NCBI GenBank assembly: GCA_000503875.1
Contig: CP006913.1
Span: 450,001 to 482,000 of the forward strand
Source: Candidatus Saccharimonadota bacterium
Lineage (GTDB): Bacteria; Patescibacteriota; Gracilibacteria; Absconditabacterales; Absconditicoccaceae
DNA length: 32,000 bases
Direction: 5' to 3'
Shown here piece by piece: positions 1 through 32,000 of this stretch. The notes below the pieces were generated by a model. That model ran no database searches. It had not been told where the DNA came from and was given only the letters and a program-made list of their open reading frames with translations. Numbering within the stretch: the stretch's first letter is position 1; every line of letters begins with the position of its first letter. The translations under genes were made by a program, and so were the position numbers.

Positions 1-530
1 AAGGGAAATCTATTAAAGAAATGGAGCCTAATGAAAGAGCTAAACTGTGAATTTTTCTTGCTTTTCAACATATTCCAGAAATTGCAGGATTGAAATTATT
101 TGAGTTTCTTAGAACAATTTATAATGCAAATCAATGACAAGAATATTCATTTTTACAATTTAAAAAAATAATAGAGCCACTATTTTTAGAACTAAATTTA
201 GAAAAAGATTTTTTGCGAAGAGATCTTAACGTGGGTTTTAGTGGTGGAGAAAGAAGAAAATTAGAGGTTCTTCAAATAAAATTACTCCAACCTAAATATA
301 TAATTCTGGATGAAATTGATAGTGGACTTGATGTTGATGCATTCAAAACCGTTGCAAAATTGGTTGCTGAAGAGAACAAAGAATGAAATACATTTATTGT
401 AATCACCCATATTTTTACAATTTTGGACTATATTTCCGTAGATAAAGTGTTTATTTTGGAAAACGGAAAAATAAGCAAAGAGTGAGATACATCTTTGATC
501 ACAAAAATCAAAAAAGAATGATTTAATTAA
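1..530 (+). CDS. sufC: Fe-S cluster assembly ATPase SufC, C-terminal part (5' end outside window)
   Basis: Frame 3 reads ...ERAKL[G]IFLAFQHIPEIAGL...VGFSGGERRKLEVLQIKLLQPKYIILDEIDSGLDVDA...NTFIVITH. This gives the ABC signature, Walker B and H-loop. Five in-frame TGA (e.g. 48-50) must be sense. TAA stop at 528-530. Confidence 0.9.
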
Positions 531-1269
531 TATTGTTTTTGATTTTTATTTCGGGTTTTTCTGGGTGTTCTACTTTTGCAATAAATCAATTCTGTCGTTC
601 TTCAAGAGTGTTATCTTGTTTAAATTTTTCTTTAAAAAAATTTAATAACTGAGGAGAAAAATATTTTAAATCAATAATTCATTTTTTATGTAAATCTGGA
701 AATATATCATCAAATCAAATTATTTTTCATGGAATAATTGCTGTGTTTACAATAGATTCATTGATATCACCATAATCACTAACAAATTTTCAAACACCAA
801 TATTAACGGTATTTCTACCTTTTTGATCCACATAGTAAACTATATTGTTATGTGTTCATTCTAAACCAAAATGAAGTTTATATATTAATGGATCAGGTGT
901 TTTTAATTCATTAACAACTAAATTAACATCGGAAAATCATGCTTCTTTCATATAATGCAATATCAAGAAAGAATATTCCAAACAAGTATTCATAAAAAAA
1001 ACTTCTTTTTCTGTTAACAATTGTCTTGTTGATAATTTTCGCATAGTATCAGGATCGTATTTTGGAGTTTTTTTTAAATTTGAATAAACACGATGAATTA
1101 TATCTGATATTACATAAAATACATCTTGATGTGTCTCGCATCAATCCAGTTTTTGGGTCTTTCCAAGAATACTATATATTTGTTGATCAGAAAGCAATTC
1201 TTTGTATCAATGAGATGCTATTTCTGATAATTGTTGTTTGGGAACTAAAATATTATTTAGATTTTCCAT
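523..1269 (-). CDS. hypothetical protein, 248 aa
   Basis: ATG at 1269-1267 and TAA at 525-523. I checked every triplet: there is no in-frame TAA/TAG but nine in-frame TGA (plus-strand TCA at 586, 679, 715, 727, 790, 856, 937, 1141, 1207). It is invisible in the standard-code track. No family recognised. Confidence 0.6.
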
Positions 1270-1344
1270 AAATAAAAAACCAAATAAAATAGAAAAAATC
1301 AATATCCGATAATAACGATTTTACAAAAAAAGTCAATTAAATGC

Positions 1345-1376
1345 AAAAAAGAAAAAACCCACTCATTTGAGCGGGT
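1345..1376 (-). terminator. intrinsic terminator downstream of the 171-aa gene
   Basis: On the minus strand: ACCCGCTCA-AAT-GAGTGGGT followed by TTTTTCTTTTTT. Confidence 0.6.
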
Positions 1377-1394
1377 CATAATTTAACTCTAGCT

Positions 1395-1910
1395 CTACAA
1401 GGTAGAGTTTTTATAAATAGCAATAGAGGTAGTTGTAACTTTTAGTTTGTACTTTTCTTTTTCAAAAAGAGATAACAAATTTTCCTCTAAGGCCACAGAA
1501 TTGTTGATTAAATGAATAGTAGGCTTTATAAAAATTTTTCCTCTTTCCATTTTTGCAGCGGAAAGAAAATTGTTTTCATAAGAGCCATCTGAATCAGTAT
1601 TGTGAAATACTTTTTCAATAATTTTAGCTATTTCACTTAATGGCGGAAGTTTGATAACGATCAAAAAGCAGGTGATGTCAATTGCAGTTCCCTCAGGAAA
1701 ATGCTGTTTCAAAAGCTTTCTAAGTAGCATATTATCAAATTTCAAACAAGGTTTTGGTCTGAGATATACTTTTTCATCCGATAAAGAACAATCAGAAAAG
1801 AAATTGTTATGAAAACTTTTGTTAAAGTTCGTCTCGCTAAATGCTTTTTTAATCAGAACTACTATCTCTTCTAGAGTATAGCGGTAGAGAATAGTGTTGG
1901 AGTCTTCCAT
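1395..1910 (-). CDS. hypothetical protein, 171 aa, two copies of a ~75-aa repeat
   Basis: Uninterrupted ORF with an ATG start. It shows an internal duplication and similarity to the neighbouring 93-aa ORF (see findings). It has its own terminator. Confidence 0.6.
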   Translation of the reverse strand: MEDSNTILYRYTLEEIVVLIKKAFSETNFNKSFHNNFFSDCSLSDEKVYLRPKPCLKFDNMLLRKLLKQHFPEGTAIDITCFLIVIKLPPLSEIAKIIEKVFHNTDSDGSYENNFLSAAKMERGKIFIKPTIHLINNSVALEENLLSLFEKEKYKLKVTTTSIAIYKNSTL

Positions 1911-1978
1911 TTTTAGATTTTTTTTTGTTAGCGGGTTGTTAATATATATTTTAATACTAAAGTCAATAGATATAATTT

Positions 1979-2009
1979 ATAAAAAAATCCCTTTATATTT
2001 TAAGGGATT
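1979..2009 (-). terminator. intrinsic terminator downstream of the 93-aa gene
   Basis: AATCCCTT / AAGGGATT 8-bp stem (1986-1993 / 2002-2009) with an 8-nt loop. On the minus strand it is followed by a T-run. Confidence 0.65.
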
Positions 2010-2026
2010 TTAGATAAGAAAGAGAT

Positions 2027-2308
2027 TTATTCCTTGTTTCGTTGTATAGTAATTATATCAACCGAAACTTCAACCGTGTAAAATTTTTCCAAAAAAATAC
2101 TTTGGAGGTATCTTTCTAATAAAATCGGGTCAAAAATAAAATTTGATTTGATTTTGATAGTAACTTTATTTTCATTTTGTTTTGTTGCTATCAATAAATC
2201 AGTTTTAAAAGAAAATTTAGATTTTGCTTTATTATAAGCTTCTTCAATAAGCTTTCCTGCTGTTTCAGCTTGAAAAACAGGAGATTTTTTTTTCTTTGAA
2301 AAACACAT
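2027..2308 (-). CDS. hypothetical protein, 93 aa, single copy of the repeat seen in 1395-1910
   Basis: Uninterrupted ORF. It is a paralogue of each half of the 171-aa neighbour. Confidence 0.55.
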   Translation of the reverse strand: MCFSKKKKSPVFQAETAGKLIEEAYNKAKSKFSFKTDLLIATKQNENKVTIKIKSNFIFDPILLERYLQSIFLEKFYTVEVSVDIITIQRNKE

Positions 2309-2425
2309 TTTGTATATATTTTGTTTTATATATACATAATAATTCGAAGAAGAAAATCAATGAATTAGATTTGAAAAAGAATAAGAAAATCCTAAAAGAG
2401 AAATATCTATTTTATAATAAGTATC

Positions 2426-3811
2426 ATGTCACTCAAAGATACCTTAGAATCAGCTGATAAAATTAAATATGAAATACTGATCAAATGACTTACAGAACAA
2501 ACGGTAAGACAAATTTCTGCTACTCAAAAAGAACCGGAATGGATGCTGGCACACAGATTAGAATGCTTTGCTACTTTTCAAAAAATGTCTTTGCCCAAAC
2601 GATGACCAAGTTTACAGTGATTAGATCTTGATGATATTGTTTATTATGCAAAACCAAGTAAAGAATATGAATGATATGCTAATAATCGAGAAGAAGTGCC
2701 AAAAGAAATCAAGGAAAAATTTCAAAAGTTGGGAATACCTGAAGCTGAACAAAAATATCTTTCTGGAGCGGGTGGTCAATACGATTCTCTCAATGTTTAT
2801 CACAAAATCAAAGATCAACGAGCAGCCAAAGGAGTAATTTTCGAAGACATGCCGCAGGCACTACGAAGTCATGAGGAATTAGTGAAAAAATATTTTATGA
2901 AGGTAGTGCCTGCTACAGATCATATTTTTGCTGCATTACACGGTGCCGTGTGGAGCGGGTGAACATTTATCTATATTCCAAAATGAGTCCAATTAGAGGA
3001 CCCGCTCCAGGCGTATTTTCGCATGAATACCTATGCTGGTGGTCAATTTGAACATACGCTAATTATTCTCGATGATGAAGCGAAAGGGTCTTATATTGAG
3101 GGATGCTCTGCACCAAAGTTTGATAAAGCATCATTACATGCAGGTTTAGTAGAAATAATTATCGGAAAACATGCTAAGATGAAATATTCTTCAGTAGAAA
3201 ATCGATCAACAAATACCTATAATCTCAATACCAAAAGAGCAATAGTAGAGGAGCATGGCTATATGGAATGGGTAAATGGAAATATGGGATCATGTACAAC
3301 AATGTTATATCCCTGTAGCATTTTAAAAGGTGATTGGAGTAAAACAGATATGCTAGGTATCGCTGTTGCAGGAAAGTGACAGAATCAAGATACAGGATCA
3401 AAAGCAATTCATATAGGTAAACATACTTCATCGACAATAATTTCAAAAACTATAGCAAAGGATGGCGGAATTTCTACGTATAGATGATTGGTTAAAATAA
3501 CTAAAAATGCAGAATATGCAGTAAATCACACAGAATGTGATGCATTACTTCTTGATGATGAGTCTGTCTCCACAACAATTCCAGATATTATTTGTGATAC
3601 AAAAACAGGAATAGTTGCTCATGAAGCAAGTGCAGGGAAAGTAGATGATTCTGAAATTTTTTATCTCACTGCTCGTGGTATTCCAGAAGAAAAAGCAATA
3701 GCTATGATAGTAAACGGATTCTTTTCATCTGTAGTCAAAAAGCTTCCTTTGGAATACGCAGGAGAATTAAATAAATTAATTGAAATGGAAATGGAAGGAT
3801 CTGTATGATAA
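2426..3811 (+). CDS. sufB: Fe-S cluster assembly scaffold protein SufB
   Basis: Four track fragments in one frame are joined by TGA. The sequence reads HGAVWSG[G]TFIYIPK[G][14 protein letters not shown], then EGCSAP, and [15 protein letters not shown] with CGA (3203-3205) at the conserved W. The C-terminus MEMEGSV[G] is followed by TAA at 3809-3811, and SufB proteins end in SVG. Confidence 0.95.
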
Positions 3812-3815
3812 GAAA

Positions 3816-3845
3816 AAACCGACAAATAATGCCGGTTTTAAAATT
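3816..3845. terminator. bidirectional hairpin between convergent sufB and the 3851-4621 gene
   Basis: AACCG(3817-3821)/CGGTT(3833-3837) stem with an 11-nt loop. It is flanked by an A-run upstream and a T-rich run downstream. Confidence 0.45.
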
Positions 3846-3850
3846 CAGAT

Positions 3851-4621
3851 TTAAAAAGTTATTTTTCTCTTTTTTTCCCAAAATTCATAGTTATCCGGGA
3901 AATAAAGTATTCTCTTTCCTCCATCAATTTGCAAAGAAAGACCAAAATCATCAATAATAAGTATTTTAGTTTCATACTTAGGGACACTTTTCATGTCAAT
4001 TTTTCTTTTCACTGTAATATAATTATCACCAGTAGATAATATAATATCCCTTATAATTATATTCGAAAGAAGTTTAACCTCTTTTTTTTGAGCTCCAATA
4101 ACATAATAAAAAACTTTTCCTTGGAGAGCAGGTGATAAATAAACCTGGTCCTCAGATATGTTTAATTTAATATGAAGCCGAAAGGCAAGAGAATCTCTTC
4201 CAAGAAGGACACATGAAAGAACCTCAAAAAAAACTGGTCTTTCTTTTTTCACAAGGGTATCCTTTTGAAAAGTACTATCTTGTTTTGCTACAAGAAGCAT
4301 ACTATCTTGTTTTGGCAAGGATATAATACTATCCTGCTTTATCAGAGAGTCGGGAATAACAGCTATATGTACAAGAGAATCATTCTTATGCAAAGAAAAA
4401 ATCTTTTTTTGTAAAATAATAGCTTGTTGTTCCAGGGTAGTAATTTCCATTTTTTTTAGGTCAATAATAGTCGTTAAACTATCCAACTGATGTTGGATAA
4501 ATTGCGTACTATCAACGACCAAAGTATCACTTCGAACAGTTTGAACAAGAATACTATCAGCAATTTGTCCAAAAGTTAAAAAAGGAATACTTCCCAAAAG
4601 ACAGCATATAAACCACTTCAT
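3851..4621 (-). CDS. secreted hypothetical protein, 256 aa
   Basis: Uninterrupted ORF. The N-terminus MKWFICCLLGSIPFLTFGQ looks like a signal peptide. There is no in-frame TGA. Confidence 0.6.
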   Translation of the reverse strand: MKWFICCLLGSIPFLTFGQIADSILVQTVRSDTLVVDSTQFIQHQLDSLTTIIDLKKMEITTLEQQAIILQKKIFSLHKNDSLVHIAVIPDSLIKQDSIISLPKQDSMLLVAKQDSTFQKDTLVKKERPVFFEVLSCVLLGRDSLAFRLHIKLNISEDQVYLSPALQGKVFYYVIGAQKKEVKLLSNIIIRDIILSTGDNYITVKRKIDMKSVPKYETKILIIDDFGLSLQIDGGKRILYFPDNYEFWEKKRKITF

Positions 4622-4803
4622 ATTTTATTTTTATTAGGTTATTTTATTTCAGTTTATAGTAGATATATTGTTATAATAAAAGAAGTCAATATAAAAGAAC
4701 TCTGACAAAAAATAAATTTATGTTTTTATTTTTTTAATAAAAAACATATTGCTATTAAGGATAATTTTGTTATAAAATCCTAGTTTATTTTTTAACTCAA
4801 AAA

Positions 4804-5394
4804 ATGACATCTAGAGAGACAGGATCAGAAGTAAAATCACCAATATTCACAAAAAAACGAACAAATTTTTTTAAACCAACAAAAAAAGAAATCAAAGATA
4901 TATTAGAAGAAACACCTAAACAAAATGGGATGCATAATTTTACTCAAGACATTACGCCTATAGACACAATACCTACTTCAATGGAAGAAATAAAAAAGGC
5001 CATAGATGTTTGTATTATAAACGATGCAGAAAATATAAGTGTAGATTCTATTGAGGACAGATTTCCGAACATTGAAGATGAATTTCCAGAATGAGAATGA
5101 TGGAAAACTCCTATAGAAAAATATATCAAAAATTATAGAAAATTACTCGTTCGAATAAAAGAAACTTTGGTTAATGATCCTCAAATTATTGATAAATACG
5201 GATCAGTATTCGGAAATATTATAGACGAAGGTCAAAAGAAAAGAGAAATAAAACCAGATCAAATAGCGATATTATTAGAATTTATTTTCAAATACAATAA
5301 AGAGTGTTATCTGTTTACTCAAGATGATATTATTAATGTATGTATTGAACAATCAGATAATAAACTATTAAATACTATAATATTCAAAAATTAA
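4804..5394 (+). CDS. hypothetical protein, 196 aa
   Basis: Track ORFs 4804-5094 and 5167-5394 share a frame and are joined through two TGA (5092-5094, 5098-5100). TAA stop at 5392-5394. Confidence 0.55.
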
Positions 5395-5482
5395 AAAGCA
5401 AAAGCCTTGAAGAAAAACATAAAATATATACAAAGAAAACAGTATAGATATTTTTAGTGTATATGTAAAATTGAAACATCCC

Positions 5483-6025: not shown

Positions 6026-6050
6026 TTAGATTTTATTTATAAAAAATATA

Positions 6051-6649: not shown

Positions 6650-7945
6650 ATGACAAAAACAAAAATATTATTTTTAGGAGGTTTATTATACTTATTTGGC
6701 CTTTCCTCAAGCAATGCTTATCTTCTCTGACTTAAATCAGCAGACAATACTATAGAAAATATTCAATCTATAGAAGAAAAACATACAATCAGAATTCCTT
6801 TGGTTGGATTTATTTTTGATCCACGAGGAGATTATGTTGTAGATACACTCAATCAACTTTCTGGAACATTAGGTACAACAAGAATATATCATATTACTGT
6901 TTCTCCAAATGGTTTTTCTGCTGCTGAAGTAGCAGAAGGAAAATTTGATAAACAATATCTCCAGTTTTTTCAAGCAATCAAAGATAATAATCTGAGGGTG
7001 GTATTTAGAACAATGCACGAGATGAACGGCGGACGATACCCTTGGTCCTCGCATCCTGAAAACTTCAAAAAAGCACGAATCCACGTCCGAGATCTTTCTA
7101 GAACAGTTGGTTTATCGACAAACAATATCTTGTTTGATTTTTCGGTAAATCACCGAGACATGCCTACCAAACAGACGCCAAGCCAAAAAGCAAAACTTAT
7201 ACCTTGTCAGTTATCTTGGAAAGAAAAAACAGGATGCTATACATTTGAAGATTATTATCCATGAGCTGAATATGTTGATCTTATTTGATTTACTTTTTAT
7301 AATCGAGGAAAAGGATTTGCCGATAGAAAACGACTTACTCCATCACAAATAGTATACGAAAAAGGACGAAATCCGCTTCAAAGAATCAAATCTTTCAATA
7401 AACCTATTATTATTGATGAAGTAGGGACAACAGCCGTTTGGTATGAAGAAGAATTTAATTATAAAATTTCCAAAGAAATATATAAAACAAATTATAAAAT
7501 GAAAAACACCTGGTTACGACAGCTACAAAATTTACTTTGGAAAGAGCAAGATATTATTGGTACCGTATATTTTAATGTAGATTATACAAATGGATTGACA
7601 AAAAAATTGATAGGTGAGGCAGATCGATCAGTAATTAACTTAGAAACTAAAAAAGTATATAATACAATTTTTACTCTTTTCAAAAATGGAGACGATCTTC
7701 ATTTACGATCACCGTTACTCAATCTTTTTGGTGTAGGGTTAATGGAAATAAATAATAAAGAAACTTTTGTTCCTCTAAAATTATTTTCAAAGATGAGAAC
7801 ATTACAATCAGGAATAAATAAATTATGAAAAACAGATGAAGAACGTAAAAAAATATTAACATCTCTTTCGTCCGATCAACTCAAAAAAATGTTTCCAACA
7901 AGTACTTTAAAAGAAAGAGAAAATATATTAGAACTTATAAAGTAA
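6650..7945 (+). CDS. secreted GH26-like glycoside hydrolase
   Basis: Signal-peptide-like N-terminus MTKTKILFLGGLLYLFGLSS. The motif FRTMHEMNGG[CGA]YPWS resembles the GH26 RPLHEMNGxWFWWG motif. The motif NKPIIIDEVG resembles the nucleophile motif. Three track fragments are joined by TGA. There are about ten CGA codons. TAA at 7943-7945. Confidence 0.6.
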
Positions 7946-10884: not shown

Positions 10885-12504
10885 ATGAGAATTGCAATTT
10901 GATTTTCTGGAGCAGCAGGTTCAGGAGTAAATACTTCAGGATTATTACTTTGAAATCTTTTGGCTTCTAAAGGATATACTATTTTGGCAGACAAAGAATA
11001 TGCATCTATCATAAAAGGAGATAATAATGATTTTTTCTTGTATATTTCAGATCAACCAGGAGAATATTTTTTAAATAAAACTATAGATTTCTTTTTCGCA
11101 TTTGATGATTATGCAGTAAGTAAAAATCAGAAATTCTATACCCTCAAAAATACTATCAATGTAAAAGATCAAATCTGTAAACATAAAAATGTCTTCTGTT
11201 TTTGAGCTGCACTTAAAGCAATGAATATACCATTAGAAGAATGAGAAAAACTTATAAAAGAACAATTTTCTGGAGATAAACTTGAAGACAATATTACTGA
11301 TCTTATGGGTGGATATGGGTATATGCAATGACTAGGAACTCATGATGGAGATCGAAGTAAAACAATAGGAGAAGCGAAAACGCTTATGTTTGGAAACGAA
11401 TGTATTGCGAAAGGAGCGATAGAAGCAGGTATGGATTTCTACGCAGCATATCCTATGACTCCAGCAAGTTCATTAATTGATGTAGTAACTACAGATAATC
11501 GCGTTACCTTTTTTCAAGGAGAAGATGAAATTGCTGTAAGTATGGCAATGCTTGGAGCCAAAGTAGCTGGTAAAAGATCTATGTGTGGAACAAGTGGGGG
11601 AGGATTTGCTTTGATGACGGAATCTATTTCATTTTCTAATCAAGCAGAAATCGGAGGAGTTTATGTATTAGCTCAACGTGATGGACCATCAACAGGTACT
11701 CCAACCTATACAGGACAAGCAGATTTAACCTATGCTCTCAATGCAAGTTTTGGAGATACCTTTCCTATCGTACTCGCTCCATCTACTTTTGAAGAAGGAT
11801 ATACGCAAATCGGAAAAGCACTTAACTGGTCAGATATTTATCAACATCCCGTAATTCTTCTGACTGACAAACAATTTTCTGAATGATATATAGCTATAAA
11901 TCCAAAAGACCTAAAAGCAGAAGAAATCAAAAGAGGTAAATTAGTACAAGGATCTGAAGGATATAAAAGATATGAATTTACCAAAGATGGCATATCTCCA
12001 TGGACAACTCCAGGTACAGAAAACGGAGAATTTATTACTACATCCTACGAACACGACGAATACGGAGCAACCAACGAAGACCCAGAAATCAAGAAAGCAA
12101 TGCAAGATAAAAGAGATCAAAAACTAAAAACCTTTATACAACAAGAATTTACTGAAGACTTTTATGGATATGAAATCATCAATCCAGATGCTGAAAAATT
12201 CTTTATTACCTATGGATGGAATAGATTTGTATTGGAAGATTATATCAGAAACAATAAAGATCAAAAAATAGGACTTATCGTGATAAAAGTATTTCAACCA
12301 TTCGATTTGAGATTAAAGACATTCTTAGAACAAAAAAATAGTCAGATTCAATTATTGATATTTGTAGAAATGAACGCATCTGGTCAACTTCAACGTTTGG
12401 TTACCGAACAATGTGTACTCAATCAACCAATACGAGAAGGTAAACTTACGAACCATAGAAAATACACATTATATCCAATATTTGGTGAAGAAGTTACTCT
12501 TTAA
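10885..12504 (+). CDS. korA: 2-oxoacid:ferredoxin oxidoreductase, fused gamma-alpha subunit
   Basis: The N-terminus is a POR gamma-like domain (MRIAI[G]FSGAAGSGVNTSG...KEYASIIKG). It is followed by the alpha domain (GNECIAKGAIEAGMDFYAAYPMTPAS, GTSGGGFALM, AQRDGPSTGTPT). Four track fragments in one frame are joined by TGA. Confidence 0.85.
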
Positions 12505-12523: not shown

Positions 12524-13126
12524 ATGAGATCCGGCTTAAATAAATTTCAACGATGCCCATGATGTGGAAACTTTATGATCCATTTGGCCATCAAAAATGC
12601 AATCAAAGAACTCAATATCCCAAAACATAAAGTTATGGTAGTTACGGGTATTTGATGTAGCGGAAAAATGAGTCAATACCTTGATGGATACGGAGCAGAA
12701 AGTCTTCATGGAAGATCTGTACCTTTTGCTACAGGAATTAAACTCGCAAATCCAGATCTGACAGTTATTGCTTACGGAGGAGATGGAGATGGATATGGAA
12801 TCTGATTAGGACATTTATTACATGCAGCAAGAAGAGATACAAATATCACGTACATCGTTGCTGACAATGAAAATTATGCATTGACTACTGGGCAAGCTTC
12901 ACCTACAACGCCAATAGATATTCCTACAAAATCAACTCCTGCAGGAAACCAAATCACTCCATTTAATCCAATAGAACTAGTAAAAGCTGCAGGATGTAGA
13001 AATGTAGTTGATGCCGTTGATAAAGATATCAAAAACTTGACACAAGCTATCGTCTCTGCTATTCAGCACCAATGATTCTCACATATTCACGTCAACCAGG
13101 CTTGCCCAACATGGAGAAGATGGTAA
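12524..13126 (+). CDS. korB: 2-oxoacid:ferredoxin oxidoreductase beta subunit (short, 200 aa)
   Basis: The sequence begins MRSGLNKFQ[CGA]CP[G]CGNF, matching the invariant WCPGCG. Other motifs are TGI[G]CSGK, HGRSVPFATGIKLANPDL and the TPP motif AYGGDGDGYGI[G]LGH. TAA at 13124-13126. Confidence 0.85.
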
Positions 13127-13142: not shown

Positions 13143-13697
13143 ATGCATAAACAATATCTCACCCCTATCAAATCATGAACACTCGCAGATGTGAAACTTG
13201 GATCTCACACAGTTTTTGAGGAAACTGACGAAAAGGGCATACTCCAACAATGTACAGGATTAGAATATATTATCAAAATAGAACCAAATATCATAGTCGT
13301 AGATAATCACGATCGTGTACTTGAATTTCGACCAAAAGGATTTCCAGTTCTCCATATAGACCAACATACAGATATGAGACCAGTCTGACCTGATGGGGTG
13401 AATGTTGGTAATTTTCTTAGATATGCCCTAGATACACAGTTAATCACGTGATCAAGCCAAATAAATACAGAATATTCTTTATTAAATTTAAATATTGATA
13501 TAATAGAGTCTGACAAAACAATTTTAGATATAGATCTTGATTTTCGACACCCAGATATGAGTATAGAACAATTCGAGAAGACAATTCAGATTGTAAAATG
13601 ATTAATAAAAAAAGCGAAGATAGTCACTATAGCCACTTCGCCTTATTTTTTAGATCAAGATTTAGCAATAAAATTATTAAAGCAATTAATTGATTAA
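13143..13697 (+). CDS. hypothetical protein, UPF0489-like (DNH...W / HIDQHTD motifs)
   Basis: The frame of track ORF 13191-13388 extends both ways through TGA. The sequence reads IVVDNHDRVLEF[CGA]PKGFPVLHIDQHTDM. The start is uncertain (ATG 13143 or GTG 13191). TAA at 13695-13697. Confidence 0.5.
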
Positions 13698-15631: not shown

Positions 15632-16636
15632 TTATTTAATCCAGAAACTAAATCCTTTATGATCAGATCAAGGAATATTAATAACCTGAAGTTCTTTAAT
15701 AAAAACAAGTTTATTAGCAAAAATATGATCGATATGGCTCCAAAACAAAGGGAATCACACACTTTTTCGTGTAAAAAGAATAGGTAATGACCTTGTTATG
15801 TTAACAAATTCTCTGTTAAATCCTTCAGCAAACTTCCAATAGAAAATAGACCATGGTGATGTATTAAAATCTCATATAACAACAACTTTATCATTTCTTT
15901 CTCTATGAACTTCCTTATGGAGATCAAAATCTTTAAAAAAGGTTTCTATTTGCACATTTCTCATGTGAAAAAATTTTGGATTACTTGGTGAACTAGCATG
16001 TACTAGATAGAAATAGATAGGTTGATTATCATACATTACAGAAAAATAGCCATATCTCCAAGCTCATTGAGGAAAATTATCAGCCCGATTATTGATTTCT
16101 TTTTTACTAAAAACCATATTTCCTACATATTTTTGAGATCGAATAGTACTATTGCTATAAGGATAATTAGTTTCTAACACATCTTTAAGATGTTTATAAT
16201 GATGATCTGCAAATTCTACAAAGAAAATTAAATCTGGATTTTCTTGTTTGATAAGCTCTTCTATTGCTACATAATCTGTATTATTTTTGTAAATATTTGC
16301 ATATAATACTTTAATTCCTCATGTCATTTGATTTTGTATTTGTTCTACAGGAAAATTATAAAATGAAGTAAATTTTTTTGAAAAAAGAAGAAAGAGTATT
16401 CAAAATCAAATAACCAATCATGCTAAAATAGATCTTTTTTTAGTTGATTCTATTGATTTTTTCTTTTTCAAAAAATAACGAAAAAAAACGATTCACATAA
16501 CCAGTCATAAAAAAGATATTCCAATATGATAGGGCAGAAAACTCAAGAAAAGTTCGGAAAAATAGTATTGGGGTAACAGAAAAGAGAAGAATCAAACCCC
16601 AAGAAATATATATCAACAAAAGATAAGAAGCATCAT
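15632..16636 (-). CDS. membrane-anchored endonuclease/exonuclease/phosphatase (EEP) family protein, YafD-like
   Basis: Absent from the standard-code track because of 12 in-frame TGA. I translated it by hand with no TAA/TAG. The N-terminus has TM helices. Then come VVVI[G]DFNTSPWS, WSHIDHIF and the C-terminal P[G]SDHKGFSFWIK. ATG at 16636 and TAA at 15634-15632. Confidence 0.75.
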
Positions 16637-17596: not shown

Positions 17597-19069
17597 ATGA
17601 AAACCTTCCATATAATTATTTTATGATGTCAGATGAATTATGCTGACAGTGCAAGAATAAAAGCAGTCCTTACCAACTGTTGATTTTTGTATACAGAAAA
17701 TAAAAAAAATGCTGATATTATCATATTTGATACCTGTTCTATCAAACAAAAATCTGAAGATAAAATAACAGGAAAACTCAAAGAAACGCTTCCTCACCAG
17801 AAGATACGAATTACCTGATGTATGATACAACATAATCTAAGAAATCAGAAAATTACCGAAAAAGAATTACCAGAGAATCTTAAAAGAGGAAATTTTTTAG
17901 GGTCTTTACAAACAAAGAATCCAGAAATTGTGGGTATAACCGCAGATGAGGTAAATGAGTTTAGAAACAATCCTTCTCCAGATAAAGTAGTAGGAATAAA
18001 CAACGCTTTTAATCCACTCTTTTATACACTCAAAAAAAAACAAGCAAATATAGAATTGTTTTGGAGAATCGATGATACGGGGTTTTTGCCGCTTATTTTG
18101 CAAAAATTAGGATATCAAATCCACCACGATACGGAAACAACAAACGAATATTCCAAAATCATACCAGAATGATTCAATACCTCGATGAATAATCACAAAA
18201 AAACAGCGTATATCCCAATCTCTTCGTGATGTAACCAATTTTGTAGTTATTGTATTGTTCCTTATGCAAGAGGATTAGAAAAACATTACCCCAAAGAACA
18301 AATTATTGAAGAGGCTAAGCGTCATCTTGCCTCAGGATGCAAAGAAATTGTTTTATTAGGACAAATTGTAAACAAACATCCTGAATTTATCGAAATTCTC
18401 AAAACTATTTTGTCTCTAGATGGTCTTGAATGGTTGAGATACACATCTCCTTACCCAAATTTTTATACACCAGAACTTCTTTTCTTACACGAAACAGAAA
18501 ACAAACTTTGTCCTCATATCCATATCCCATTTCAATCAGGATCAAATACTATTCTCAAAGCGATGCGCCGCGGATATACGGTTGAACAAGCAAAAGAATT
18601 TATTAAAAACATTAGATCGCTCAAGAGAAAAATTAGCATTACTACTGATATGATTGTTGGCTACCCCGATGAAACTGAAGAAGATTTTCAAGCAAGTTTA
18701 GATCTAGCAAAATACGGAAATTTTGATATGATTTATATTGGAATTTATTCACCAAGACCAGGAACCTTCGCTCATAAAAATCATCCAGACACTATTGACC
18801 GTGCAACCAAGCGAGAAAGACGAAACCGTTTAAACGAACTTCTTAAATCTATATCTAAAGCAAACAACGACCAAGAAATCGGCCAAATAAAAAAAGCAAT
18901 CGTCGATAAAATACATGACCAAGAAATATATGGCTATACCGACAACATGAAACAAATTATTATAAAAAATAAATCTGACTCTAAAATTAATGTAGGAAAT
19001 TTTATTAACGTACGTATTACAAAAGCAATTCCTTTTAAATTGTATTGAGAAATAGTTGAGAATAGCTAA
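17597..19069 (+). CDS. miaB: tRNA methylthiotransferase MiaB (radical SAM)
   Basis: The sequence begins MKTFHIIIL[G]CQMNYADSARI and has IFDTCSIKQKSEDK and IT[G]CM. The radical-SAM motif is SS[G]CNQFCSYCIVPYARG. The TRAM-like C-terminus ends ...FKLY[G]EIVENS. TAA at 19067-19069. Confidence 0.9.
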
Positions 19070-19102: not shown

Positions 19103-20398
19103 ATGCTTCGTCCCGGATGATTTCCTGAATACAATCCAGCTGAACAATTAGTCTTTGATCAAGTCAAAGTAATTATAGAACAACTCTATGAACAACATGG
19201 ATATACACATATTCAAACTCCCGCAGTAGAAGCAAATTCAGTTCTTCTTTCAAAAAATGGAGAAGACGCAGGGAAACAGATTTTCTGATTATATGGATTA
19301 GCTCAAGGAGCAGAGGATAGTAAAGATTATTCTCTCCATTTTGATCTTACCGTTCCTTTTGCAAGATACGTTCTCGATCGAGAAAATGAACTTACTTTTC
19401 CCTTTAAGCGTTTTCAAGTACAACCAGTTCGAAGAGGAGAAAGAAGTCAAAGAGGGAGATTTAAAGAACTTTGGCAAGCGGATGTTGATGTGATTTGGCA
19501 AGAATGAGAAAAATCAGCTATAGGAAAAAATCTCTATTACGATGCAGAAATGATGATCGTAATAGCAAAAACATTACATCAAATTATAGAAAAGTTTATT
19601 TCTGGGAAAAAATTTACTCTTCATATCAATAATAGATACCTTCTTGCTGGAGTAATGGAACAATTTTCTGAAGAAAAACGTCCTCTTATATATTCACTTT
19701 TGGATAAATATTATAAAATATCTCATGAGCAATTTATCAAAGAAATAGAAGAATTACTTGGTACAGAAAGCAAAAAAATATTGGATTTTGTAGCTTGCAA
19801 ATTAGACGATTTGACATCGTACAAACTAGAAAACGAAAATTTCAAAAGAGGGGTAAAAGAACTTGAAGAGGTATTTTGATATATCAAAGCACTAAATCCT
19901 GACAATACGTATAAACTTGTATTTGATCCTTATATTATTAGAGGATTAGATTATTACACAGGAACAGTCTATGAATCATTTTTTGATGATGATATGGCGT
20001 TAGGAAGTATTAGTTCTGGGTGAAGATATGAAAATCTCACAGGATATATCAATCCAAAAAAGAGTCAGTATTCATGAGTAGGAGGAAGTATTGGATTATC
20101 AAGAATTGTCTTCCTTATTTTGGAAAAGAGCAAACCAGAACTTTTGACTAAGACAGAATATCTCTTTGTGAATTTCAAAGAAACAATCAATGAAACTGCT
20201 TGATTGATGAACAAATTTCTTGCAAAATGAAAAATATGTGAAATATATCCATCACCAGATAAACTGGGAAAACAATTCGGATATGCTGATAAGAAGGGGA
20301 TTCCTCTTGTTATTATTCTAGGGGAAGGAGAAAAAAACGAAGGAAGTTATAAGATAAAAGATATGATAGCAGGAACAGAAACAACTCACAAAATTTAA
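19103..20398 (+). CDS. hisS: histidyl-tRNA synthetase
   Basis: The sequence contains [13 protein letters not shown] and FKRFQVQPV[CGA][17 protein letters not shown], where relatives read PVWRGERPQ. It also has [14 protein letters not shown][G]GRYENL and [G][10 protein letters not shown]. It is joined through several TGA. TAA at 20396-20398. Confidence 0.9.
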
Positions 20399-25920: not shown

Positions 25921-25984
25921 ATATTGGCAACTGCGAAGATGACTATAATAATTTATACAAGAATTGCAAACTATTTTATTGAAA

Positions 25985-26449: not shown

Positions 26450-26667
26450 GACTTTTAGAAATAAATAAAACAAATTTTAATTATTAGAAACTTTATAATT
26501 AGAGCAATAAAAAGGACAAATAAAAGAAGAAAATCATCACCAAATCAACATAATCCGTAGCCAAAAAGCAGCAATACAAAGACTTCGTGACTTTCAACTA
26601 ATGACTCGATACTGCCTTGATGATTGATGAATTTTATTTGTTTTTTATTGCGAAGTAACGATTAGAT

Positions 26668-27762
26668 TTATTTATTCCAAACAATCTTAGTTCTAGCACC
26701 ACCAAATCTCATTGTGATATTAAGTATTTTTTGAGCAGAGGCAATGTTGGTTGATTCGAAATATCAAGGTCCCTTTTGCTCAAAGTCAGCAAGTTCTAAC
26801 TGTCATACAAGGTGTTTATATGTAAGTTTTACTCATACATCTTTTGGTAAATGAATCGTAATATCCGCCAAAGATGATTCTATATCCAAATTTTTGAGAG
26901 AAGATCCAACAACAATATCGGAAATCATTGCTCCAGCATGAACTTTAACAGTTTTAGCCAAAGTATCCGTAAGGTCTATTTTTTGAAGAGCCAAAAGATT
27001 TTTAACATACAAATATAATGGTTGTGTTGAAGTAACTCAAAGCGATATTATACTATAGTAATTTTGAAGTAAATTCAGATTTGTTTCTTCTTGAAAAGAA
27101 TAATATTGATAATTTCCTGTAGAACCTGAAAACACTAACAATTTTCTATCTGATCAATAATTTCATTCCAAGAAATTATCTGTTTTTTTACCAACAAAAG
27201 TAAGGTCACTCACCAAAGTGGTTAGATACATCTTGCTATATTGAGCAGTTGATGCGGAAGGATATGAAATATAAGAACCAAATTTTGTTTCAGTTGAAGG
27301 ATTGAGTGATGTATATACTCAGATAGTAAAAAATCACCCTACAACAACTAAAAACAAAAGCAGACCAAATATTTTTCCAAATAATCATCTATAACTCCAA
27401 ATAACTATCGAACTGAAAAGAATAAAAATAGGATATATCAAGTTTAGATTAAAACCATTGATATTAAGAGAAAATACATTCAAGGATTCCAATAACATCA
27501 AAAAGCCTATAACAACCAATGATAAAATTGTTAGTGTTCTGAAAAAGCCATGTACTCTTTGCTTTTTATAAACAATTTTTTCTATTATTTGTGGTTGTGA
27601 AGTCGTTCCTTGGAACAAAGGTTGTGGCGGAATGCCTGCTTGTCCAGCCGAAGTTTGTCTAATAAAAGACTCCAAAGATGTTGGATCGTGAGGTGGAGGA
27701 GTTTGTTCTGGTTGATTTGGTTGGATTGGTTGGATTGGTTGATTAGGTTGCATAGGATCCAT
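26668..27762 (-). CDS. membrane protein with Pro/Gln-rich N-terminus and beta-rich C-terminal domain, 364 aa
   Basis: Track ORF 27385-27762 continues through 11 in-frame TGA, and I checked every triplet, to TAA at 26670-26668. Two or three TM helices are followed by a C-terminal domain that may resemble LiaF/DUF4097 (weak impression only). Confidence 0.6.
27711..27755 (-). repeat. imperfect 9-bp tandem repeat x5 (encodes QPI/QPN units)
   Basis: Plus-strand units are GTTGATTTG, GTTGGATTG, GTTGGATTG, GTTGATTAG and GTTGCATAG. Confidence 0.8.
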
Positions 27763-27785
27763 ATTGAAATATTAAGGAATAAATA

Positions 27786-29285
27786 TTATAAGGTAATTTC
27801 TTCAGGTTTGATTCTTATTTGTTTCATATCATCTCTAGTTCTAAGAGTCACGGTTCCATCTTCCAAAGTCTGATGATCAATAGTTATACAGTAAGGAGTA
27901 CCGATTTCATCTTGTCTGCGATAACATTTTCCGATATTTCCACTATCATCGAATTCACACATATATTGTTTGCTCAACTTTTTATAGAGATTTTCTGCAA
28001 ATCCAACTATTTTTTCATCTTTTTTTAACAAAGGAATAATAGCAAATTTAATTGGTGCAACATTTTTATGGAATCTGGCAACAATTCTTGTTTGTTCTGC
28101 TCCGTTTCAATCCGTATATTTTTCTTCATCATAGGCATCAATCAAGGCTGTCAAAATAGCTCTTGTTAATCATCGACTTGGTTCTATACAATGAGGAACA
28201 TATCTTTTACCTGTATAAGGATCATTATATTGCATATCTTTACCAGAATGCTGCATATGTTGTTTCAAATCATAATCAGTCCTATAAGCAATACCTTGTA
28301 ATTCTCACCATCATCGTGGGAAAAGATATTCTACATCACAGGTTCCTTTACTATAAAAGCTCAATTCATCTTTATCATGATCTCTAAATCTCATATTTTC
28401 TTCTTTGATTCCTATCTCTTCTTTCCATCGTTTCTTACTCAAATTTTTCCAATCTTCAAATGCTGCTAATCCCACTTTTTCATCATTTTCTACAAAGTAT
28501 TCGATTTCCATTTGATAAAACTCTCTCACTCTAAACATAAAGTTACCTGGAGTGATTTCATTTCTAAATGATTTTCCTATTTGAGCAATTCCAAAAGGAA
28601 TTCTTGATCTCGTAGTATCCAAGATATTTCTAAAGTTAACGAAGATTCCTTGTGCAGTTTCTGGTCTCAAGTAAATATCTGTTCCCTCTCATTCTACGAT
28701 ACCTTGTTGCGTCTTGAACATCAGATTAAATTTCTTTGGTTCAGTTCGATCACATGATCAACATTTAGGACATTTTACTTTTTCTCAATTAAGAACAGCT
28801 GTTTGTTGCTCGAAAGTCCAAGCTTCTGGTGTTAGATTTTGAATTCAATATTTTTCTAAAAGATAATTTAATGCTGTTTTATCATTTTTTTCAAATTCTT
28901 TATCCATATTTTTTGATTCTCAATTTTTTGTTGCTGATAATTCTGAAACAAATTTTCTAGTTATATAATCTTCAATCAATTTATCAGCCCTTTCTCTACT
29001 TTTACATTTTTTACAATCAACCAATGGATCAGAGAAACCTCATACATGCCCACTAGCTTCCCATACTTTTGGATTCATCAAAATCTGACTATCAAGCCCT
29101 ATCACATCATCTTTTTCTTGAACAAAATATTTCCATCGAATATTTTCTATATTTCTTTTGATTTCTGTCCCATAAGGTCCTAGATCCCATGCATTTGCTA
29201 ACCCACCATAAATATCTGATCCTGGATACGCAAAACCCCTTCTTTTCGCCCACGCAACAATCGTGTCCAATGATTTCTCCATCAA
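27786..29285 (-). CDS. glyQS: glycyl-tRNA synthetase (dimeric GlyQS type)
   Basis: Three track fragments in one frame. The sequence reads [24 protein letters not shown][CGA]WKYFVQE (WWK in relatives), then GHV[G][26 protein letters not shown] and [12 protein letters not shown]. It also has LFP[CGA][G]W[G][13 protein letters not shown] and the anticodon-binding C-terminus. TAA at 27788-27786. Confidence 0.95.
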
Positions 29286-29360
29286 TACTATACATTAATA
29301 AGTAAACATACTGTTTTTGAATATATGAAACTCGTCCAAAGTTTCAAGACTAAGGTTACT

Positions 29361-29391
29361 TTAAAAAAAACCTACGAAGAAATCGTAGGTT
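29361..29391 (-). terminator. intrinsic terminator overlapping the last codons of the 141-aa gene
   Basis: On the minus strand: AACCTACGA-TTTCT-TCGTAGGTT followed by T8. The TAG stop lies inside the 3' arm. Confidence 0.8.
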
Positions 29392-29797
29392 CATCAGAAT
29401 CAATTATTTGAGGAGGATTGTTTCCATCTTTTAAATAAACTTTATCGTCCTGTATCCAAGTAGAAAAAATTTTGATTGATTTATCCATATCCATATCCAT
29501 ATCCAAATCTTGTAATGTTTCTTTGAGAATACCTCTAGGCATTCCCTGTGAAGAAATATGAATATGTGGATAATGTTTTTCTATTTTAGATGAAAACATT
29601 TTTTTGAAGTCTTGAGCTTTAGTACTTTCTTTTTTTCGATTATTTATATCCAACACATTTGACCAAACAAAAGCACCTTGTCCTACTTTTTCTGCATGAT
29701 TATTTAATTCAACAGAAGATTCTATATTGAATATTTTTTCTGTCCAAATATCAACGATACGCTGAATATTTTTGGATTTGTTATTTTTTGTATTCAT
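29372..29797 (-). CDS. hypothetical protein, 141 aa
   Basis: Uninterrupted ATG ORF with its own terminator. It contains a DMDMDMD run encoded by a hexanucleotide repeat. Confidence 0.55.
   Translation of the reverse strand: MNTKNNKSKNIQRIVDIWTEKIFNIESSVELNNHAEKVGQGAFVWSNVLDINNRKKESTKAQDFKKMFSSKIEKHYPHIHISSQGMPRGILKETLQDLDMDMDMDKSIKIFSTWIQDDKVYLKDGNNPPQIIDSDEPTISS
29483..29506 (-). repeat. hexanucleotide repeat ATCCAT x3 plus ATCCAA
   Basis: The direct tandem repeat is seen on the plus strand. It encodes DMDMDMD in frame. Confidence 0.8.
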
Positions 29798-30035
29798 ATT
29801 AGTTTTTTTTAGGTTTTCACCATATTAAATAAATAGATGCTTTTTTCAATGAAAAACCAATGTTTTAAAATACAAATTTTATCTATTAAAAAAAGTAAGT
29901 AAAAATTTGTTTATATTTTGATTACTAAATGAATCTACAAGAAATTGCATTTAGATAATCAATTATACTTTAGTATAAATTTCACAAATTAAAAATCTTT
30001 ATTAAAATTTGTTTATAAATTTTCTTTGCGAAAAT

Positions 30036-30063
30036 TTGCTTTTAAAATAATCCTCGTTATACT
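30036..30063 (+). promoter_or_regulatory. candidate promoter TTGCTT-N16-TATACT for the non-coding island
   Basis: TTGCTT at 30036-30041 and TATACT at 30058-30063. The predicted start is near 30070. Confidence 0.4.
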
Positions 30064-30069
30064 TTATAC

Positions 30070-30434
30070 GAAAGAATGAATGTAAGGATATCGGAATATT
30101 GTATATATACTACTAATTCCCTGATATTATCTACAAATAGGATGGCCACCCAAAACAAAAACAAAATCTAATACTATTTACCCCTTAGACAGTGGCGCCA
30201 ACATTTTATTTCCCTGGATATTATTCATAATTACGTATTATGTATGTGGTCAAAATCTGATTATCTCCACCAGTGAGATAGGCATCGCTTGCAACACATT
30301 GCTTTCATGTAAAATTTGTTATCTGCACGGTAATCCAAACCCAAGGATTAAGAAAGTGTATCAGTATCTGGTACCACCACAAGACATCAAATTTTCTATT
30401 AGACCGTAGCGTTATTGGACCTACGGTCTTTTTT
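30070..30434 (+). ncRNA. candidate structured non-coding RNA of unknown family (~365 nt)
   Basis: No ORF is possible on either strand, even with TGA as sense. GC is about 40% in three 60-nt blocks I counted, against about 17% in the flanking spacer. GAAAGAATGAATG (30070-30082) can pair with CATCAAATTTTC (30385-30396). There are several internal hairpins, for example 30086-30131, 30226-30242 and 30291-30302. It ends in the strong terminator at 30401-30434. Confidence 0.4.
30401..30434 (+). terminator. intrinsic terminator ending the non-coding island
   Basis: AGACCGTAG / CTACGGTCT 9-bp stem with an 11-nt loop, followed by T6. Confidence 0.8.
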
Positions 30435-30501
30435 GTTGATTTGAAAAGAAAAATAGATAAATAGAACATAGCCACTATTTATATACCTAACCAATGTAAA
30501 A

Positions 30502-30945
30502 ATGTGTATATTTTGCAAAATTATTTCAGGAGAAATACCGTCTTACAAGATATGGGAAAACGATAAATTTATAGCAATTCTCGATATTTTTCCAAATTGT
30601 AAGGGACAAACATTATTGATTCCCAAAAAACATTATGAATCAGATTTATTTAATATTCATGACAAAGAACTCTATAAAGATGTTATTCTTGCTACTGATG
30701 ATGTAGTCCAACTTCTAAAAGCAAAACTTAACGTACAGAGAGTAGGAATGATTATGGAAGGAATGGGTGTAAATCATCTCCATATCAAACTTTATCCTAT
30801 GCATGGAATAGAAGAAGACTGGAAACAAAATATTTGATGAGAACAAGTATTTTTCGAAGAATATCCAGGATATCTCACGACAGAAATAGGTGAACAAGCC
30901 GACTTCCAAGATCTAGCCAATATCCAAAGACAAATAAAAGAGTAG
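30502..30945 (+). CDS. HIT-family hydrolase
   Basis: The sequence begins MCIFCKIISGEIPSYKIWENDKFIAILDIFP and has the histidine-triad region GVNHLHIKLYP. It reads through a TGA TGA pair (30835-30840). TAG stop at 30943-30945. Confidence 0.85.
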
Positions 30946-30973
30946 TTGACTTTTATGTATAAATGGTTATATA
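30946..30973 (+). promoter_or_regulatory. candidate promoter TTGACT-N16-TATATA
   Basis: TTGACT at 30946-30951 and TATATA at 30968-30973, about 37 nt upstream of ATG 31010. Confidence 0.45.
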
Positions 30974-31009
30974 TTGGTTTGTTCTATGTTTTATATATAA
31001 TAGATAAAA

Positions 31010-31783
31010 ATGACCGTAGAAACCATTTCTATCAACGAACAAATGCAAATAGAAACGAAAGAATCTAAAGATTCTACTTTTTGGAAAAATGAAATAATAA
31101 AGTATATAGAAAAAGCAAAAATAGATACCCACAAACGAAAACCAACGTTAGAAAAAGAAGATGATATATTAAATGATATTCGAAAAAATATTCAGAATTT
31201 AGCAATGCAAGCAAAAAGTTATTATATCCATAAAAAGAATACTCAGAAAATAAAATTTGAAGTTGGAAAAAGAGATTTTCCAGAAAAATTTAGAGAAAAA
31301 GTTATAAAAAAACTCAATAAAAAACTTTTCCAAATAAACGCTGAAGATATTAAAAATGAATTAGAAAGAGCATATCAAAAAGAGCATCAAAAAGAAATAC
31401 ACCAGTACCAAAGTATAGAAGAAAAATGGAGAAGATTAGAACAAATGTGTATCCGATGAAGCAAAAAAAGAGCGATAAGAACGTTAGTAAATGGAAGTCT
31501 TTTTAAAAATTTAATAAATCAACCAGAAAACAATCGTTTCACCTATACAACAAAAACAAGCAAAAAGCTTTATGATGTTGTAGTATTAGGTAAAGAAACA
31601 GTAAATGATAAAACTATATATCAGCTAGAAATGGCAGAGGGAAAACCATTAAAATTTGCTGTATCAATGGATAAAAATCAAGAGGAGCACTTCTTTCAAA
31701 CAAGCAAAAATACCTCAACAATAGAATGATTACAAGAAATAGAAGACACTATATACAATTTCCTCAACAAGATCCCTTGATAA
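31010..31783 (+). CDS. hypothetical protein, 257 aa, highly charged N-terminal half
   Basis: Track ORF 31010-31459 continues through TGA at 31457-31459 and two more to TAA at 31781-31783. Confidence 0.55.
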
Positions 31784-31799
31784 GTAAGGGATTTTTTTT
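31772..31799 (+). terminator. intrinsic terminator overlapping the stop codon
   Basis: ATCCCTT-GATAAGT-AAGGGAT followed by T8. Confidence 0.8.
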
Positions 31800-31831
31800 A
31801 TAAAACGGATAATTTACTATCAATAAAATAT

Positions 31832-32000
31832 ATGAAACACTACGTTGTACGAGAGGGAAAAACCCCTTGAATTTATGATTCACGAGATAATTGTTTACCC
31901 AATGTTTCTTGATTTTCTGGTGCAAAATACAAATCATTTAAGACCAAACAAGAAGCAGAAATAGCATACAAAAAACCGTATACAGAATATTACGAAACCA
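31832..32000 (+). CDS. rnhA: ribonuclease H1, N-terminal hybrid-binding domain (3' end outside window)
   Basis: The sequence is MKHYVVREGKTP[G]IYDS[CGA]DNCLPNVS[G]FSGAKYKSFKTKQEAEIAY. This matches the RNase H1 / caulimovirus-VI N-terminal domain pattern YvV..G..pGIY.sW.ec...v.Gf.gAkyKsF....eA. Confidence 0.8.

Follow-up and report, generated by a model that had tools for sequence, protein, structure and literature searches.

Evidence that CGA is read as tryptophan, in addition to UGA as glycine, in an Absconditabacterales-type Patescibacteria genome

The 32,000-nucleotide stretch of DNA analyzed here (the window) carries genes of an Absconditabacterales-type member of the Patescibacteria and raises the question of how its CGA codons are translated. 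Under translation table 25 of the National Center for Biotechnology Information (NCBI; SR1/Gracilibacteria), referred to below as code 25, UGA is glycine and both CGA and CGG remain arginine. A sequence-only reading of the window had proposed that CGA encodes tryptophan, given its coincidence with conserved tryptophan positions in unrelated families. We find that the genome very probably uses code 25 with CGA, and probably CGG, read as tryptophan rather than arginine. Three independent tests, namely the columns of solved homologues, interchange with TGG in relatives and profile scores, bear out the proposal, and it is on their joint evidence that CGA appears to act as a tryptophan codon. The finding repeats a prior prediction and is already known, because the window is identical to part of assembly GCA_003543185.1, for which a tryptophan call for CGA has been published (Shulgina and Eddy 2021; eLife 10:e71402, PMC8629427).

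The window has a GC content of 29.5% and holds 34 genes with 9273 codons, TGA being counted as sense and gene starts being chosen to match an independent European Nucleotide Archive (ENA) gene call of the same DNA. TGA is a sense codon here, since long reading frames arise only when it is read through; it occurs 147 times in frame, and its reading as glycine is what the window shares with code 25. The other in-frame counts are CGA 53, CGG 4, TGG 57, AGA 207, AGG 10, CGT 27, and CGC 10. Arginine in this low-GC DNA is mainly written AGA (207 of the 254 AGA, AGG, CGT, and CGC codons), which is about four times as common as CGA, and CGA comes close to TGG in frequency (57 vs. 61 per 10,000 codons). 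Adding CGA and CGG to TGG raises the tryptophan content of the genes from 0.61% to 1.23%, and code 25 applied to the window would place arginine at 53-57 tryptophan positions.

CGA sites in proteins of known structure

With CGA masked as X, we aligned SufB, GlyRS, a GH26-like glycosidase, HisRS, KorB, and MiaB to Protein Data Bank relatives from standard-code organisms, and tallied residues in the single best solved homologue of each of the six proteins. At the 23 CGA sites the homologue has W in seven cases and F in three, with no R and no K; the remaining sites face L, H, and Q (two each) and N, A, G, I, V, D, and a gap (one each). TGG behaves similarly (16 sites: W 9, R 2, K 0). The 66 sites written AGA, AGG, CGT, or CGC have R opposite them in 45 cases, K in 3, and W in none, and the 36 TGA sites face G 23 times and K once, never W or R. 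Seven or more W among 23 sites would arise by chance with a probability of 1.3e-8 at a background W frequency of 1.3%. Judged by these alignments, CGA sits on tryptophan and aromatic columns and never on arginine columns. The conservative alternative is that CGA still encodes arginine, as in plain code 25, and that the matches to tryptophan columns reflect chance or a lineage-specific replacement of tryptophan by arginine. It must contend with the absence of R from all 23 sites, when the other arginine codons match R at 45 of 66 (Fisher's exact test: R deficit p=1.7e-9, W excess p=3.6e-5). The sites are as follows, relatives being the related loci described in the next section.

SufB, 2600-2602, plus strand, SLPK[CGA]G: W in Escherichia coli SufB (EEPHWL); relatives have CGA in seven cases and TGG in two.
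SufB, 3203-3205, plus strand, SSVEN[CGA]ST: W both in SufB of E. coli (TVQNW) and in the counterpart from M. mazei (MIHNW); relatives have CGA in seven cases, CGG in one, and TGG in one.
GH26-like glycosidase, 7034-7036, plus strand, HEMNGG[CGA]YPW: W in C. thermocellum Lic26A (HEANGDWYPW); the relatives' DNA has CGA 58, CGG 6, TGG 15, and nothing else.
GH26-like glycosidase, 7076-7078, plus strand, FKKA[CGA]IHV: F in Lic26A; relatives most commonly have TGG (42), then CGA (27) and CGG (5).
GH26-like glycosidase, 7304-7306, plus strand, FTFYN[CGA]G: W in Lic26A (DGYNWG); relatives have CGA 63, TGG 12, and CGG 5.
KorB, 12551-12553, plus strand, Q[CGA]CPGCG: W in four of four solved homologues.
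HisRS, 19430-19432, plus strand, QPV[CGA]RGER: F, W, or Y across solved HisRS; TGG in two relatives.
GlyRS, 29136-29138, minus strand, NIENI[CGA]WKYF: the first W of WW in four of four solved GlyRS.
GlyRS, 28746-28748, minus strand, CGSCD[CGA]TEPKKFN: W in four of four solved GlyRS; TGG in one relative.
GlyRS, 28314-28316, minus strand, YLFP[CGA]GWGEL: F in Mycobacterium GlyRS and H in Thermus GlyRS.
RNase H1 N-terminal (hybrid-binding) domain, 31883-31885, plus strand, GIYDS[CGA]D: there is another CGA at 31850-31852.
MiaB, 18812-18823, plus strand, TK[CGA]ER[CGA]NRL: I and L in the solved MiaB of B. uniformis, K and Q in RimO.
Hypothetical open reading frame (ORF) 13143-13697, 13329-13331, plus strand, RVLEF[CGA]PKGF: CGA kept in three relatives.

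The sequence-only reading had listed sites in all of these genes, and each coordinate and codon that it gave is correct; the GlyRS site at 28746-28748 is an addition to its list. Its examples of genuine arginine (SerRS YRREAG, KorA AQRDGPSTG, and SufB TARGIP) are indeed written with CGT. It had also cautioned that some CGA sites would look natural as arginine, naming the MiaB pair and SufB AL[CGA]SHEEL. The caution was fair, and the sites prove uninformative rather than arginine-like, with I and L at the MiaB positions and H at the SufB position in E. coli SufB. The column at GlyRS 28314-28316, described there as aromatic, carries F in Mycobacterium as expected and is better called aromatic or variable given the H in Thermus. 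The label "UPF0489-like" for ORF 13143-13697 found no support, as Pfam at E<=0.001 returned no match to it whether W, R, or X was placed at the CGA sites. Its motifs HIDQHTDM and DIDLDF[CGA]HPD resemble a metal-dependent hydrolase.

Codon interchange within the clade

Eighty related loci from GTDB species genomes (L006-L085), aligned by tblastn under code 25, were read codon by codon against the window; the counts of codon pairs that follow are counts of sequences and not of independent events. Opposite window CGA, the 773 pairs comprise 489 with CGA or CGG, 195 with TGG, 15 with Phe or Tyr codons, 3 with Lys codons, and 2 with other Arg codons. Window TGG gives the mirror image, its 378 pairs comprising 145 with CGA or CGG, 133 with TGG, 17 with Phe or Tyr, 3 with Lys, and none with other Arg codons. 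Window AGA pairs with other Arg codons in 584 of 682 cases and with Lys in 62, leaving CGA or CGG 10, Phe or Tyr 1, and TGG 0, and window TGA (557 pairs) meets TGA 260 times and GGN 247 times. When the GH26-like gene is left out, window CGA and CGG pair with CGA or CGG 73 times, with TGG 23 times, and with other Arg codons never, while the other Arg codons meet one another in 441 pairs, Lys in 33, CGA or CGG in 4, and TGG in none. Counted by site, TGG appears in some relative at 22 of 39 covered CGA sites and another Arg codon at 1 of 39, and TGG appears in any relative at none of 148 other-Arg sites.

The direction is unanimous in these comparisons, which point to a six-codon arginine family split into CGA and CGG, exchanging with TGG, and AGA, AGG, CGT, and CGC, exchanging with Lys. 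The synonymy of CGA with AGA, AGG, CGT, and CGC that plain table 25 predicts is not found, and for CGA as arginine the 195 TGG pairs against 2 other-Arg pairs are hard to accommodate given that AGA is four times commoner than CGA. The same counts bear on the alternative that CGA encodes Phe, Tyr, or Leu: the 15 Phe or Tyr pairs among the 773 could be cited for it, as could the three CGA sites facing F and the several facing L, I, or V in solved homologues, but the partner codon in relatives is TGG and not TTY or TAY.

Protein databases preserve the imprint of this exchange. A database search at E<=1e-5 gives the GH26-like protein (6650-7945, secreted) 333 homologues, and many of its columns are invariant across the order, where it is strongly conserved. 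The 120 listed of these 333 are 45% to 96% identical to it, their named sources being Absconditabacteria, SR1, or "Peribacteria". Among these 120, columns beneath window CGA contain R and W only (R112/W8, R81/W39, and, at 7076-7078, W73/R47), as do columns beneath window TGG (R94/W26, R73/W47), and columns beneath window AGA are R120 or mixtures of R and K with no W. Columns mixing R and W are the expected outcome of mistranslated tryptophan codons. The gene itself has 16 predicted tryptophan positions, 11 written CGA and 5 TGG. A GH26 profile search outside the clade was set aside, as most of what it returned were ORF fragments and very distant multidomain proteins, whose alignments misplaced even the invariant R of FRTMHE.

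Profile scores

Translating CGA as W rather than R raises the match to eight families by about 61 bits in total (scores in bits).

SufB (TIGR01980): W 639.6, Y 625.8, F 624.6, L 622.4, K 620.4, R 620.1, G 615.3.
GlyRS (NF003211): W 625.9, F 621.9, Y 619.2, L 615.6, K 612.3, R 611.2, G 608.1.
HisRS (TIGR00442): W 292.7, R 286.9.
KorB (NF008820): W 262.1, R 256.0.
Cauli_VI (Pfam; RNase H1 domain, both CGA sites): W 73.9, R 64.9.
Exo_endo_phos (Pfam): W 82.1, R 78.9.
Glyco_hydro_26 (Pfam): W 36.7, R 35.1.
UPF0004 of MiaB (Pfam): W 51.8, R 50.5.

The GH26-like protein matches the Pfam GH26 family weakly (about 35 bits), and HisRS (19103-20398) translated with R clears its TIGR00442 cut-off barely (286.9 vs. 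286.75). Further profiles are indifferent: PilB scores 396.1 with W and 395.9 with R, and MiaB with its three CGA sites scores WWW 359.3 and RRR 359.4 against TIGR00089, and WWW 310.3 and RRR 309.5 against TIGR01574.

Two of the alternatives can be judged at this point. For CGA as arginine it can be said that database translations with R still pass family thresholds and that R gives marginally higher scores at a few variable columns; the gain of about 61 bits with W, and the genome-wide Codetta call of tryptophan discussed below, speak against it. Together with the solved-homologue and codon-pair evidence, we consider plain code 25 with CGA as arginine to be refuted at the sequence level, and its remaining probability to be negligible. 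Equally negligible, in our estimate, is a reading of CGA as Phe, Tyr, or Leu or as a false signal produced by misassembly, by frameshifts, or by C-to-U editing that turns CGA into UGA. W is the commonest residue aligned to CGA (7 of 23) and outscores F, Y, and L in both SufB and GlyRS; editing to UGA would yield glycine, which has the lowest score in both proteins; and an assembly artefact would have to recur in two independent assemblies that are identical over the window and in 80 other genomes with the same pattern.

CGG

CGG is rare in the window. The sequence-only reading judged it too rare to assess from the window alone, which holds, although its estimate of about two in-frame cases falls short of the four in called genes. 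The sole CGG at an alignable conserved site is the following.

Endonuclease/exonuclease/phosphatase (EEP)-family protein, 16085-16087, minus strand, KEINN[CGG]ADNF: relatives have CGA in three cases and TGG in one, and the Exo_endo_phos match of this protein is the one that gains with W (82.1 vs. 78.9 bits).

At the clade level CGG is found in 54 pairs under window CGA and in 18 under window TGG. CGG is probably also read as tryptophan in this genome, as far as codon exchange can indicate.

tRNAs and a proposed decoder

The window's tRNAs are tRNA-Thr(GGT) and tRNA-Cys(GCA) only, in agreement with the sequence-only reading, which saw no tRNA with anticodon UCG, and an Rfam search of the window found no other RNA. 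A tRNA(UCG) was found in a relative, the Absconditabacterales metagenome-assembled genome (MAG) JTS-AC65 (locus L072, JBGTAD010000144.1; 163-235, minus strand). ARAGORN gives it an acceptor stem of 8 bp; when the stem is set to the standard 7 bp, it has A1:U72, G73, and U20, the last taken from the D-loop AGUGGUA. The identity rules for a tryptophan-type tRNA are G73 and no A20, with A1:U72 as optional support (Shulgina and Eddy 2021), and by these rules the L072 tRNA would be of tryptophan and not arginine type.

The anticodon arm of this tRNA, CCGGUCUUCGGAACCG, is identical to the arm of genuine arginine tRNAs with anticodon UCG, and we dropped the notion that its anticodon stem is specifically tryptophan-like, as the same arm occurs in genuine arginine tRNAs. 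Because that arm is common to ordinary tRNA-Arg(UCG), metagenomic matches to it serve as a contrast set: all 52 of 52 such tRNA-Arg(UCG) have A after G18G19 and G as first base. The tRNA-Arg(GCG) of two relatives (L063 and L064) likewise has A20, together with A73. The origin of the L072 decoder could be either an identity-switched arginine tRNA or an anticodon-mutated tryptophan tRNA. A scan of viral contigs for tRNA(UCG) found nothing, and synteny through the neighboring amidase gene revealed no tRNA(UCG) at three homologous loci.

Some features of these loci are worth recording. The amidase gene itself (L072 1311-3713, minus strand; amidase_2/SpoIID-like) has 13 CGA or CGG codons, as in TRN[CGR]GDIGYHF, where W looks natural by eye. 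A C27-U43 mismatch gives the L072 tRNA a 4-bp anticodon stem closed by G26-C44; such stems have been linked to expanded wobble, and for this order only tRNA(CCG) was discussed (2026 Nucleic Acids Research [NAR] paper). Locus L030 contains a UCA-anticodon tRNA (12077-12151, minus strand) that ARAGORN labels tRNA-SeC; with a stem starting G1:C72, C2:G71, G3:C70, it fits the UGA-reading tRNA-Gly(UCA) of the clade.

We propose a mechanism on the basis of the L072 tRNA, a single example, and of the table published for GCA_003543185.1. A tRNA(UCG) lacking the arginine determinant A20 and bearing the acceptor features A1:U72 and G73 would be charged by TrpRS and would read CGA and CGG through U34 wobble. 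tRNA-Arg(GCG) would read CGU and CGC, and tRNA-Arg(UCU) would read AGA and AGG; as tRNA-Arg(ACG/ICG) is absent, no arginine tRNA would compete for CGA. At a GC content of 29.5% and with arginine usage dominated by AGA, CGA and CGG may have been rare before their capture, after which CGA would have risen to near parity with TGG (53 vs. 57 in the window), CGA, CGG, and TGG being connected by single synonymous steps.

Evidence against reassignment, and ambiguous decoding

Several points weigh against a tryptophan reading of CGA and CGG. Opposite roughly two-thirds of the CGA sites, distant homologues carry something other than W (F, L, H, Q, N, A, G, I, V, D). Variable columns score neutrally or 1-2 bits in favor of R, namely in KorA (W 396.2, R 398.1), SufC (W 189.0, R 190.6), and two C-terminal MiaB sites. 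One gene, the GH26-like glycosidase, contributes most of the codon pairs. CGG has one informative site in the window and is left as "?" by Codetta for GCA_003543185.1. The window contains no tRNA(UCG) or tRNA(CCG), its flanks of about 10 kb on either side add no further tRNA of any kind, and the decoder in this genome rests on a published presence/absence table. TrpRS would have to accept a UCG anticodon, and our literature searches found no proteomic or biochemical confirmation of CGA as tryptophan. As W has a low background frequency, a slight preference for R at variable columns is to be expected and is no argument for arginine; in relatives the same columns retain CGA or have Phe codons, not AGA.

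A subtler alternative is that CGA is decoded ambiguously, mostly as tryptophan and sometimes as arginine or another residue, through a mischarged tRNA(UCG) or a competing tRNA, as an intermediate stage of reassignment. Arginine would be tolerable at some CGA columns (KorA, SufC, and the MiaB C-terminus), and the L072 tRNA keeps an ordinary tRNA-Arg(UCG) anticodon arm. C35 and G36 are arginine identity determinants. As for whether translation is ambiguous, only experiments can tell (Shulgina and Eddy 2021). Set against this, CGA occupies invariant tryptophan positions of essential enzymes (the GlyRS WW, KorB WCPGCG, and SufB NW), where frequent arginine would be harmful; CGA and TGG are about equally frequent; exchange with another Arg codon makes up only 2 of 773 pairs in relatives; and A20 is absent from the sole tRNA(UCG) seen. 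We regard ambiguous decoding as improbable and retain a reading of CGA as tryptophan.

Relation to published predictions

Shulgina and Eddy (2021) ran Codetta on more than 250,000 genomes and predicted for the Absconditabacteria that CGA and CGG are translated as Trp on top of UGA as Gly, supported by conserved-column examples and by tRNAs with tryptophan identity features; in the authors' view only experiments can confirm it. The sequence-only reading had described this screen correctly and was right to expect not a brand-new code but a rare one that awaits experimental verification, since GCA_003543185.1 is already in the 2021 table. The source data of their Figure 4 (fig4-data1) list this assembly with UGA as Gly, CGA as Trp, and CGG as "?"; with tRNA counts of ACG 0, GCG 1, UCG 1, CCG 1, and CCA 1; and with codon frequencies per 10,000 Pfam-aligned codons of AGA 289, CGU 45, CGC 12, CGA 25, CGG 1.7, and UGG 56. 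Its GC content is given as 0.31, it is labeled "Likely Absconditabacteria", and it failed GTDB quality control (CheckM 0.50). The same CGA/CGG reassignment is recovered by KACI, a k-mer method (bioRxiv 2026), and the 2026 NAR paper takes it as given. Literature searches found no official name for code 25 combined with CGA and CGG as tryptophan.

Phenomenon and genome are therefore the same as in the 2021 prediction, from which nothing essential differs. What is added here is the codon-level interchange of CGA, CGG, and TGG across 80 related genomes, and one CGG site (16085-16087) that behaves like tryptophan where Codetta had "?". The near parity of CGA and TGG in the window also contrasts with the 25 vs. 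56 per 10,000 Pfam-aligned codons of the 2021 table. It is conceivable, and we offer it tentatively and with somewhat more doubt than conviction, that the reassignment has advanced further than the published picture of a rare and recently captured codon, with CGA a co-dominant tryptophan codon and the commonest codon at many invariant tryptophan columns across the order, CGG also read as tryptophan, and the decoder perhaps an identity-switched tRNA-Arg(UCG).

Anaerococcus and the RFN20 Bacilli (Onthovivens) were predicted by the same screen to read CGG as Trp, Peptacetobacter to read it as Gln, and Enterosoma to read AGG as Met (Shulgina and Eddy 2021). The window genome shares with these Firmicutes a low-GC host, a rare arginine codon, and a dedicated tRNA of changed identity. 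It differs in that only CGG changes in the Firmicutes CGG cases, where tRNA(ICG) keeps CGA as arginine and there is no tRNA(UCG), whereas here CGA is the main reassigned codon, tRNA(ACG) is missing, and tRNA(UCG) would serve both. A code of the Anaerococcus/Onthovivens type, with CGG alone as Trp and CGA as Arg, does not describe the window.

Origin and gene content of the window

The window DNA is 100.000% identical and gap-free (BLAST, all overlaps) to positions 93433-125432 of NCBI contig DPJE01000003.1 (462,027 bp) of GCA_003543185.1, and the same DNA is present in contig k127_922976 (287,776 bp) of ENA assembly ERZ936476 (SRR944699, PRJNA167727, sediment metagenome). Placement in the clade follows from the published listing of GCA_003543185.1 under "Likely Absconditabacteria" and from the closest homologous loci; these loci belong to MAGs titled Absconditabacteria, SR1, or "Peribacteria" and are at most 74% identical. 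Taxon labels are inconsistent: GCA_003543185.1 is labeled by NCBI "Candidatus Gracilibacteria bacterium" (taxid 2044595), a taxon now named "Candidatus Altimarinota bacterium", and relatives are variously titled Absconditabacteria, SR1, "Peribacteria", Patescibacteria group, or "bacterium", one (L045) being a "Bacillota bacterium". The genes of the window include the following.

SufC, SufB, an HD-domain hydrolase, the GH26-like glycosidase, IspH, and MurA.
KorA and KorB (2-oxoacid:ferredoxin oxidoreductase alpha and beta) and a PilB/GspE ATPase.
The EEP-family protein, MiaB, HisRS, SerRS, and GlyRS.
Two receiver proteins, SmpB, a HIT protein, and the start of the RNase H1 gene.

KorB (12524-13126) is only 200 amino acids long, covers positions 15-206 of the 287 in its profile, and has no C-terminal third, its solved homologues being 273-305 amino acids long; the downstream ORF 13143-13697 is unrelated to it. 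Between ORF 29372-29797 (minus strand) and the HIT gene, about 700 nucleotides (29798-30501) contain no credible code-25 ORF in any frame; the ENA annotation has no gene there, and Rfam finds nothing in this interval even at E<=1. NCBI gene calls of GCA_003543185.1 are split at TGA, as expected of table 11, with GyrA in nine pieces and SufB and GlyRS uncalled; ENA gene calls on the same DNA are intact.

Implications

To our knowledge, reassigned sense codons occur very rarely in bacteria and experiments have so far confirmed no case, which is why the phenomenon matters for the evolution of the genetic code. There is also a practical consequence, in that public databases apply either table 11 or table 25 throughout the clade. 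Under table 11 genes are shattered at TGA, and under table 25 each tryptophan encoded by CGA or CGG becomes an arginine. Because CGA and CGG are translated as arginine, about half of the tryptophan residues in these proteins, often invariant functional ones, would be wrong in databases, alignments, and structure predictions.

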